This document shows, one piece after another, positions 17,548-22,297 of a stretch of DNA of 64,000 bases. The notes under the pieces are model-generated. The model did no database searches and had not been told where the DNA came from. It saw nothing but the letters and a program-made list of their open reading frames with translations. A program made the translations under genes and the position numbers. This DNA is from a virus. Each line of letters starts with the position of its first letter. Position 1 is the first letter of the stretch. The DNA lies in IMG/VR virus record IMGVR_UViG_3300037245_003639, one strand, 5' to 3'.

Positions 17548-19524
17548 TTGTTATGCATGGATATATTCATGAACGACCTTCTCAAAAGAATTGCAGAAAC
17601 CAAAGAAACTCTCAGCAGAGTCGGCACGAATCTCAAGAAACGTTTTGTCGGTATCGACGAAATGATAGATTCCGTGCTGGATAACCTGGAAGTTTGGCAC
17701 GCAATGCCCGAATTGATAGGTCGGCCTGTGATCATCAATTTATGGGGCATGACAGGTGTTGGTAAAACAGATTTAGTTCGACAATTGGCCAAAGAACTTT
17801 CTATGGTGGACCGGTTTGTCGAGGTCCAGATGGCCAACAAATCTGACAGTTCGTCTACTTCAATTCGGTCGATTCTGGCCCACTCATCTATCGAGCCTGA
17901 TGCCAAAGGCATTCTGTTGCTCGATGAGATCCAGCGTTATCGTACTGTGGATCAAAACGGCGTTGAAATTCATGATCACGACTTCCAAGATGTATGGATG
18001 CTACTCAGTGATGGATGTTTTGCTGGTGATAGTTCCGCCAAATCTGAGATTGTTGACCTGTTGTTCGGAGACCTATACTGGCAACAATACGAAAACCGAC
18101 CAGAGCCAACTACTGCCAAGGCCAAAAAGAAAAAAAAGGAAGAAGCAGCAAAAGCAAAACGCATCAAATACAAGCAATCCATCTGGGCTGCTCGTCATCT
18201 CAAACGAACGCTACGTTTAACTCAAAGCGTCGAAGAGATTATGATGTGGGACGAGGAACAGAAATACCATATGCTCACTGATGCTTTGAACAATCAGGAC
18301 ACATTCGAGGGTGACTCCTATCAACAATTGCTCATCTTCATCTCAGGCAACATTGATGAAGCTTATAGCATGGCGTCCAATACCGATGATGCGGATATGG
18401 ATGCTGATATCTTCTATGAATTCTCCAAGAGAATCAACTTCGTCTCCATTAAACGAGCCCTGTGTCGGCGATTCAAACCCGAACAAATAGCTCGTCTCGG
18501 CAATACCCATGTTATCTATCCGTCGCTGTCCAAAGCATCCTACCAGGAAATCGTCAATCGTAAAGTTGATGAAATCACACAGAAGATGCAAGAACATGGG
18601 ATGAGAATTACAGTGGATCAGTCTGTCAAAGACTGCATCTACCGCAACGGTGTTTTCCCGGCTCAGGGCGTCCGACCAGTGCTCTCCACGGTCAATGCTA
18701 TGCTTGGAAACGCTGTGCCTGGATTCTTCATGAAAGCCGTAGAACATGGAGTAAGTGAATTCCTTATTACCTGTGATGATGAATCTCAGGAACTTGTTGT
18801 CGCTATTGGTGAGCACGAATTTCGCCGGACAATAGAAGGCGGTATCGACAAAATCAAGAAAGAGCACGATATTCAACAAGTCCAACTTACGGCAGTCCAT
18901 GAAGCCGGGCATGCCGTGGTCTATGCCGTTCTTACTAATTTGACCCCGCTGCAAATCATTGCAAATACCTCAATGGAGAACAAAGAAGGATGGGTAGGTA
19001 TACATCATTCATCATTCTCCAAGGACAGTATCCTGCAACGTGTTTGCACCAACTTGGCAGGCATGGTCGCAGAGGATTGGGTATTTGGAGACCCAGATCG
19101 AACAGCCGGATGTTCTGGTGACGTTTATTACGCAACCAACTTGATTGGGTCGCTCATTCGTCAGTGGGCTATGAATGGCAGAGTTAGCTATAGCTCCAAT
19201 AGACATCAGGACTGCAACCCGGTCAACTTCGATATAGAAAGCACAAACGCAGAAATAGAACGGATAATGTCTGAGCAAAAAGAGCGAGCGAAAGATTTGC
19301 TCGAACGTCATCGCCCATTATTCGAAGCGACAGTTGTGGCACTCAATGATGGAACACAAGGCAAGCTCGTGGGAGTTATTTCGTCTGTGGAATTCCAAGC
19401 AATAGCAGCACGGTTTGGCACGGAATTGGAAATCCAGAGTGCCAAGGAAACCCCCTATGCCGACTATATGGGAATGTTCAAACAGTTTACTAAAAGCGTT
19501 GCCGCCGAGGAAGTCGCAACATGA
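17548..19524 (+). CDS. FtsH-like ATP-dependent metalloprotease: divergent P-loop ATPase domain plus peptidase M41 domain, no TM anchor
   Basis: Walker A GMTGVGKT, Walker B ILLLDEIQ; C-terminal HEAGHAVV ... GMVAEDWVFG ... YYATNLIGSLIRQWAMNG matches the FtsH M41 zinc site and C-terminal helix by eye. Confidence 0.7.
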   Translation: MLCMDIFMNDLLKRIAETKETLSRVGTNLKKRFVGIDEMIDSVLDNLEVWHAMPELIGRPVIINLWGMTGVGKTDLVRQLAKELSMVDRFVEVQMANKSDSSSTSIRSILAHSSIEPDAKGILLLDEIQRYRTVDQNGVEIHDHDFQDVWMLLSDGCFAGDSSAKSEIVDLLFGDLYWQQYENRPEPTTAKAKKKKKEEAAKAKRIKYKQSIWAARHLKRTLRLTQSVEEIMMWDEEQKYHMLTDALNNQDTFEGDSYQQLLIFISGNIDEAYSMASNTDDADMDADIFYEFSKRINFVSIKRALCRRFKPEQIARLGNTHVIYPSLSKASYQEIVNRKVDEITQKMQEHGMRITVDQSVKDCIYRNGVFPAQGVRPVLSTVNAMLGNAVPGFFMKAVEHGVSEFLITCDDESQELVVAIGEHEFRRTIEGGIDKIKKEHDIQQVQLTAVHEAGHAVVYAVLTNLTPLQIIANTSMENKEGWVGIHHSSFSKDSILQRVCTNLAGMVAEDWVFGDPDRTAGCSGDVYYATNLIGSLIRQWAMNGRVSYSSNRHQDCNPVNFDIESTNAEIERIMSEQKERAKDLLERHRPLFEATVVALNDGTQGKLVGVISSVEFQAIAARFGTELEIQSAKETPYADYMGMFKQFTKSVAAEEVAT

Positions 19525-19952
19525 GCGGTGACCTCGTATTTCGTTTTCTGCTCGGCCATCTGATTGGTGACTATCTGCTCCAAACCAACTGGATGGCTCT
19601 TAAAAAGAAATCCCAGACGATTCCCTGCCTCGTGCATTGCAGCGTTTGGACTGCCTGCGTATGCGCATGCCTACTGCCGGAACTTATTCAGCTTTCTATC
19701 CCGCGAATTTTCCTGGTCACAGTTCTGATATTTCTGTCGCACTTTTGGCTGGACCGTTTTGACCTGATTGAATGGTGGTTTCGTAAAATCGGCTCCCGTA
19801 GCTGGCGAGAGATGACACGAATCTATGACTACGGGAAACCGTCTCTTGAAAAGCAGGCCATGACCGCTTATACTGCCCTCGTCCAAACAGTGGCAGATAA
19901 TACGCTGCATCTGGCTTTTGTCTACTTGATTATTCGTTTCTTGGTGCCGTGA
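19521..19952 (+). CDS. membrane protein, 143 aa
   Basis: ATGA overlap with the FtsH-like gene; several hydrophobic segments. Confidence 0.45.
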   Translation: MSGDLVFRFLLGHLIGDYLLQTNWMALKKKSQTIPCLVHCSVWTACVCACLLPELIQLSIPRIFLVTVLIFLSHFWLDRFDLIEWWFRKIGSRSWREMTRIYDYGKPSLEKQAMTAYTALVQTVADNTLHLAFVYLIIRFLVP

Positions 19953-20278
19953 TGCTCGCTGTGGCTTTCACTCTAACAACCAAACATCTCGGAATCGCCA
20001 TTGCATCCATCTGCATAATCGTCCTAGTTTACTTGGTCCGAGAGGATATACAAGAACTCCTCGGCGATATCGCAGATGGCATTTGCGATGCTAAAAATGC
20101 TGTATGCGAAAACGTCAGGGAACGCATAGGAAGTATGGGTATTGTCTGTCTGCTGGCAGCAACAGGTTTTGGAATAGCCCTAATCTGCGGAACATCGTTG
20201 GCCTCCGCAGGTATAGTGACAGGGATAATACTCCTAATCATTCTCTTCTGCATGGCAGTAGACTGCGGGAAGTTCTAG
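19949..20278 (+). CDS. membrane protein, 109 aa
   Basis: Overlapping start; hydrophobic. Confidence 0.45.
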   Translation: MMLAVAFTLTTKHLGIAIASICIIVLVYLVREDIQELLGDIADGICDAKNAVCENVRERIGSMGIVCLLAATGFGIALICGTSLASAGIVTGIILLIILFCMAVDCGKF

Positions 20279-22178: not shown

Positions 22179-22297
22179 CACAGCACTGGGATAGGGGCGA
22201 CAATAAGTCGCCCCACTCATTTTAATGTCTTGACAACCCAGACCATTTCCCTTACGCTGCGGCAGTGTTTACGAGTCCTTCAACGGAGAATAGACGA

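Follow-up and report, generated by a model that had tools for sequence, protein, structure and literature searches.

The 658-residue protein encoded at positions 17548-19524 is best read as a soluble, Lon-like, self-contained AAA+ metalloprotease that represents a new architectural variant. In this protein, a Clp/Hsp100 D2 module of the HCLR clade, together with its D2-small lid, appears to be joined at residues ~420-430 to an FtsH-type M41 peptidase. A soluble chimera whose active sites are intact is, in our view, highly probable; both halves carry all catalytic residues, which are invariant across the family. The original prediction had offered a new domain fusion as one of its two readings, and the joining of a Clp-D2-type ATPase to an FtsH-type M41 domain bears that reading out. 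The three motifs on which it was built, GMTGVGKT (residues 67-74), the charged run KAKKKKKEEAAKAKR (residues 191-205) and HEAGHA (residues 451-456), are all present. The window, meaning the whole 64,000-nucleotide stretch of IMG/VR record IMGVR_UViG_3300037245_003639 that was analyzed, apparently belongs to a large uncultured phage, an assignment drawn from a few PHROG hits and distant phage homologs, and no phage structural gene was found within it. The features of the protease gene are as follows.

17548-19524, plus strand: coding sequence of the soluble Clp-D2-type AAA+/M41 peptidase fusion, 658 amino acids from TTG
17548-17745, plus strand: N-terminal helices, residues 1-66, equivalent to the pre-Walker A segment of the ClpB/ClpA/ClpE D2 module
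17746-17769, plus strand: Walker A GMTGVGKT, residues 67-74; G67, T69, G70, G72, K73 and T74 invariant (116 sequences)
17830-17862, plus strand: loop after strand β2 at the pore-1 position, residues 95-105, poorly conserved
17914-17928, plus strand: Walker B LLLDE, residues 123-127; D126 and E127 invariant (116 sequences)
17929-17991, plus strand: conserved post-Walker B hairpin, residues 128-148, IQRYRTVDQNGVEIHDHDFQD, ~10 amino acids longer than in ClpB D2
18022-18327, plus strand: family-specific helical insertion subdomain, residues ~159-260, ~100 amino acids, at the pre-sensor-1 hairpin position
18082-18168, plus strand: variable polyampholyte linker in the insertion, residues 179-207, holding KAKKKKKEEAAKAKR
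18118-18162, plus strand: charged run KAKKKKKEEAAKAKR, residues 191-205, inside the variable linker
18328-18351, plus strand: sensor-1 strand LLIFISGN, residues 261-268; G267 and N268 invariant (116 sequences)
18472-18495, plus strand: FKPEQIAR, residues 309-316, with arginine finger R316, aligned to ClpB FRPEFINR
18526-18807, plus strand: ClpB_D2-small-type lid domain, residues ~327-420, from Pfam and profile matches; includes sensor-2
18664-18678, plus strand: sensor-2 QGVRP, residues 373-377, within the lid domain
18835-19521, plus strand: peptidase M41 domain, residues ~430-658, from Pfam, profile and hhalign
18898-18912, plus strand: zinc site HEAGH, residues 451-455; H451, E452 and H455 invariant (116 sequences)
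19120-19122, plus strand: third zinc ligand D525, invariant (116 sequences)

The C-terminal third matched Peptidase_M41 (PF01434) at residues 443-596 in Pfam, with E=4e-16 and 59.7 bits against a cut-off of 29.9. FtsH chains from the PDB matched the family profile only at positions 428-637, with E values of 5e-27 to 1e-20, and hhalign aligned profile positions 422-627 only to residues 370-599 of E. coli FtsH, at a probability of 98.8%. Within this domain, E509 is conserved. The M41 hallmarks that had been noted earlier are real and the site is not an inactive one, as indicated by the invariance of the HEAGH motif and of the third ligand Asp525.

On the N-terminal side, the matches point to Clp/Hsp100 proteins. 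ClpB_D2-small (PF10431) was found by Pfam at residues 327-387 (E=1e-7, 32.3 bits against a cut-off of 21.9), and the NCBIfam models that matched the ATPase part were those of ClpA, ClpB, ClpV, ClpK and ClpG, with FtsH matching only at residues 424-599. The full-length ClpA, ClpB and ClpV equivalogs scored 54-57 bits against cut-offs of 885-1,232, the D2 part alone being matched. Among PDB chains, Clp/Hsp100 D2 modules matched family profile positions 12-104 and 304-429, the latter with E values of ~1e-13 to 1e-10 for ClpC and ClpB, and the FtsH AAA domain scored -2.2 bits against the family profile. With hhalign, profile positions 17-424 aligned to residues 553-855 of E. coli ClpB (E=7e-6) with a probability of only 85%, a value kept down by the central part of the ATPase (residues ~100-270), where divergence hampers alignment. 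The motifs stand in the Clp D2 register and align with those of the ClpE, ClpB and ClpA D2 modules. Arginine finger R316 and sensor-2 residues G374, R376 and P377 are invariant in 116 sequences, and among the 389 full-length family members Walker A was present in 386, HExxH in 388 and QGxRP in 384. Sensor-1 and the arginine finger are separated by 48 amino acids in the family, this protein included, compared with ~12-15 in FtsH, and an SRH-like pattern was found in just one of the 389 members. These sequence comparisons place the ATPase with the Clp/Hsp100 D2-type (HCLR-clade) AAA+ modules that carry a D2-small lid, and not with divergent FtsH AAA domains. The ATPase had been called non-canonical and divergent. 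It does differ from the AAA domain of FtsH, but as a module of the Clp D2 type, for which GxTGVGKT is the usual Walker A. Membership in a defense system was considered and rejected: the PADLOC matches (DolB, PDC-M37B and PDC-S01) are weak and limited to residues 18-133 around Walker A, and reflect generic Clp-like similarity.

The AF2 monomer model of the protease has a pLDDT of 93.7 and a pTM of 0.88, and Foldseek searches with this model returned matches to FtsH along the entire chain and to ClpB NBD2 (TM 0.63-0.71). The helix between the two domains is FtsH-like and appears to have been retained in the chimera. FtsH, whose defining features are taken here as described (PMC9020784), is anchored in the membrane by one or two N-terminal transmembrane helices (PMC9020784), and the literature consulted describes M41 peptidases solely as the proteolytic part of membrane-anchored FtsH-type enzymes (PMC9020784; PMC8943139). 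Like FtsH, Yme1 and AFG3L2 (MEROPS M41), the protein has an M41 domain with HEAGH, the conserved Glu (E509) and the third zinc ligand D525, an FtsH-like helix leading from lid to protease, and an ATPase followed by a peptidase in the same order on one chain. Unlike these enzymes, it has no N-terminal transmembrane or periplasmic region, and in place of the classical-clade AAA domain with its SRH and FVG pore motif it has the Clp D2-type module with the D2-small lid. With the D2 modules of Clp/Hsp100 proteins (NBD2 of ClpB, ClpA, ClpC, ClpE and ClpV) it shares GxTGVGKT, Walker B, the sensor-1 Asn, an arginine finger in (F)[RK]PE..xR, sensor-2 G-x-R-P, the D2-small domain and an LLxxLDDG-like helix (WMLLSDG), and its N-terminus begins where the D2 module begins. 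However, it consists of one putative ring module and lacks an N-domain, D1 and M-domain; the GYVG pore-1 loop is deleted, the segment after Walker B is longer by ~10 amino acids, and a helical insertion of ~100 amino acids appears to replace or extend the pre-sensor-1 hairpin. In contrast to the Clp proteins that dock on ClpP, it shows no IG[FL]-type loop on reading of the sequence, and its peptidase is covalently fused.

In Lon (LonA), a soluble protease made of one chain, the C-terminal peptidase comes after an HCLR-clade AAA+ module, and the enzyme works with no separate partner. The protein described here shares this soluble, single-chain order of AAA+ module and C-terminal peptidase, and we use Lon as a working analogy. 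The two differ in that the peptidase is a zinc-dependent M41 domain rather than the Ser-Lys S16 domain, and in that the Lon N-terminal domain and the pore-1 aromatic are missing; the match of Lon to the protein was only marginal (PDB 3m6a, E=0.16).

The largest departures from the Clp D2 module lie between Walker A and sensor-1. In none of 283 assessable family members does the stretch from Walker A to Walker B contain G-Ar-φ-G or FVG, and no aromatic residue occupies the pore-1 position in the protein or its closest relatives. The hhalign alignment leaves an 11-amino-acid gap in the family opposite ClpB "...appGYVGyeegg", and by this alignment the GYVG pore-1 loop of ClpB D2 is deleted in the family. 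Every G[FY]VG match in the family lies inside the M41 domain (GFVG ~30 amino acids after HExxH), and a count of 62 members with a pore motif, obtained from G[YF]VG, was dropped since all of its matches were of this kind. An R-[F/Y]-R motif marks the hairpin after Walker B, where every sequence of alignment A2 (100%) has an aromatic at residue 131; from its position, this hairpin is a candidate pore-2-type substrate loop. The insertion subdomain sits between helix α3 (WMLLSDG) and the sensor-1 strand, and in the model single-residue bridges at 157 and 257, at the site of the pre-sensor-1 β-hairpin, flank the ~100 helical residues. Its linker is acidic and then basic in 110 of 115 family members, and its C-terminal half is conserved. 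A polybasic or acidic insert had been suspected in this region and is indeed real, but it is larger than was noted, being a subdomain of ~100 amino acids of which KAKKKKKEEAAKAKR is merely the variable linker.

On the model of FtsH and Lon, the protein would form a ring, probably a hexamer, with an ATPase tier atop an M41 proteolytic chamber, and ATP hydrolysis would feed polypeptide into that chamber; processive threading is an assumption here, because the pore-1 loop is missing in the family. As the canonical GYVG loop is deleted, the substrate would probably be gripped by the R-[F/Y]-R hairpin after Walker B, and the charge-rich helical insertion may also grip and would serve as a substrate or adaptor gate, both roles being suggested by position. 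The protease would act in the cytoplasm of the infected cell on host or phage proteins. We consider a processive ring-protease mechanism somewhat probable, and the reading as a whole, a soluble single-chain chimeric ATP-dependent zinc metalloprotease with a ring mechanism and a cytoplasmic role, likely.

Alternatively, the protein could be an ATP-regulated protease that does not thread its substrates, in which the Clp-like module acts as a nucleotide switch or remodeler, targets are recruited via the insertion, and the M41 domain makes limited, site-specific cuts in, for example, a host factor, a defense protein or a phage protein. The deletion of GYVG and the poor conservation of the pore-1 position, which has no aromatic in the subclade of this protein, would fit such a protease, although the near-universal aromatic directly after Walker B could replace the one lost from pore-1. 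The ~100-amino-acid insertion likewise suggests a binding surface, since its C-terminal half is conserved and its linker runs from acidic to basic in 110 of 115 sequences. Against such a protease, every residue needed for ATP hydrolysis is invariant, the trans-acting arginine finger among them, which implies that the ring ATPase works, and the only known role of M41 domains is to form the chamber partnered with translocating ATPases (PMC9020784). A conflict-related role would be in keeping with the patchy and lineage-rich distribution among huge phages, whereas the bacterial copies sit among housekeeping-like genes and outside defense islands. Taken on this evidence, a non-threading protease is unlikely.

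The second reading in the original prediction was an FtsH-type protease without its own anchor that acts at the membrane once docked on the products of the next two genes. These genes do encode small membrane proteins, as had been stated.

19521-19952, plus strand: DUF3307 membrane protein, 143 amino acids, Pfam E=2.3e-9, two predicted transmembrane segments
19949-20278, plus strand: small hydrophobic protein, 109 amino acids, no family match, three predicted transmembrane segments

The stop codon of the protease gene overlaps the start codon of the DUF3307 gene (ATGA), so the two are probably cotranscribed and translationally coupled, and the same pair of genes follows the protease in a relative of 77% identity. 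Several neighboring genes in the window also encode signal-peptide or transmembrane proteins, which would suit a role at the membrane. However, the pair is not found beside the homologs of 58% (L001), 49% (L153) and 43% (L002) identity, and a DUF3307 homolog was present at none of 150 other loci. When all open reading frames within 6 kb on either side were clustered for 148 loci, no neighbor was conserved across the family (the best cluster covered 19 loci), and a small transmembrane protein lies directly downstream at only six of the 148, below the gene background of 11.5%. The DUF3307 and 109-amino-acid proteins are therefore lineage-specific neighbors and not conserved partners. Since the family is highly conserved in their absence, any docking would be limited to one phage lineage, and we regard docking as very improbable. 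A promoter and terminator scan of the 14.0-22.3 kb region stayed at shuffle level, the sole exception being one strong terminator-like hairpin at 22194-22214.

The claim that the protein has no N-terminal transmembrane region agrees with the data for both the protein and its family. A hydropathy scan of the whole protein gave no transmembrane segment, and neither a transmembrane segment nor an N-domain was found in the N-terminal helices at residues 1-66. Family members generally have no anchor: 137 of 148 have no predicted transmembrane segment, a median of 63 amino acids, with no hydrophobic segment, precedes Walker A, and a hydrophobic 19-mer is found in this part of only three of 386. The gene itself is real, because it has more than 2,600 homologs, the best 120 of which are mostly full-length (39-77% identity, E down to 0). 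Its true start is likely one of two in-frame codons, either ATG 17557 (Met4), which starts the 100%-identical JGI protein P0001 of 655 amino acids, or ATG 17569 (Met8), which best fits the N-termini of the homologs. The maximal open reading frame begins 21 nucleotides past the stop of the upstream gene and therefore leaves no room for an N-terminal extension or transmembrane anchor; no start codon yields a membrane anchor, and the start was not mis-called in that sense. An ordinary FtsH with a mis-called start, a truncated gene or a dead FtsHi-type pseudo-protease, toward which the automatic naming of homologs as "cell division protease FtsH" might point, is refuted with near certainty by these open reading frame limits, the short non-hydrophobic family N-terminus, the missing FtsH AAA domain, SRH and FVG motif, and the M41 site with its invariant HExxH and Asp525.

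The chimeric Clp-D2/M41 protease belongs to a broad family, with ~889 clusters at 50% identity (E≤1e-30). It occurs on huge-phage contigs of 200-690 kb; 69 loci were found in IMG/VR, many on contigs of 200-548 kb, and at least 578 loci in GTDB species genomes, cultured genera included. Chromosomes of cultured Variovorax, Acidovorax, Polaromonas, Arcicella and Thiothrix carry members, and the bacterial copies sit among housekeeping-like genes. The hybrid design is common in huge phages and some bacteria. Pipelines label the homologs "cell division protease FtsH" or "AAA family ATPase," and the family is hidden as a result. Pseudomonas phage MIJ3 gp107 and PA5oct gp342 are annotated as FtsH-like (PMC6892783) and, together with giant-virus FtsH, resemble the protein in being virus-encoded with an FtsH-like annotation. 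They were rejected as family members: a tblastn search of 50,697 phage records returned no relative at E≤1e-5, and a BFVD fold search gave only canonical FtsH or ClpA types, the best matches having ≤16% identity. A literature search of incomplete coverage found no earlier description of a Clp-D2/M41 fusion, which is absence of evidence only.

In the soluble chimera, the M41 chamber would also be coupled to another AAA+ clade and freed from the membrane, a pairing of Clp-D2 and M41 that is as distinct as Lon is from ClpXP. More speculatively, and with considerable doubt, the family could form a sixth class of prokaryotic and phage AAA+ protease beside ClpXP, ClpAP/CP, HslUV, Lon and FtsH, that is, a soluble Clp-D2/M41 chimera with no pore-1 aromatic paddle that grips via the R-[F/Y]-R hairpin and a charge-zippered helical gate, and serves huge phages as a cytoplasmic degradation machine against the host proteome or defense proteins. 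The family offers a natural experiment in the modularity of motor and peptidase and in the loss of the pore-1 loop. The presence of orthologs in cultured genera makes its biochemistry and genetics directly testable, and the Clp-D2/M41 protease is a widespread, uncharacterized component of huge-phage genomes.

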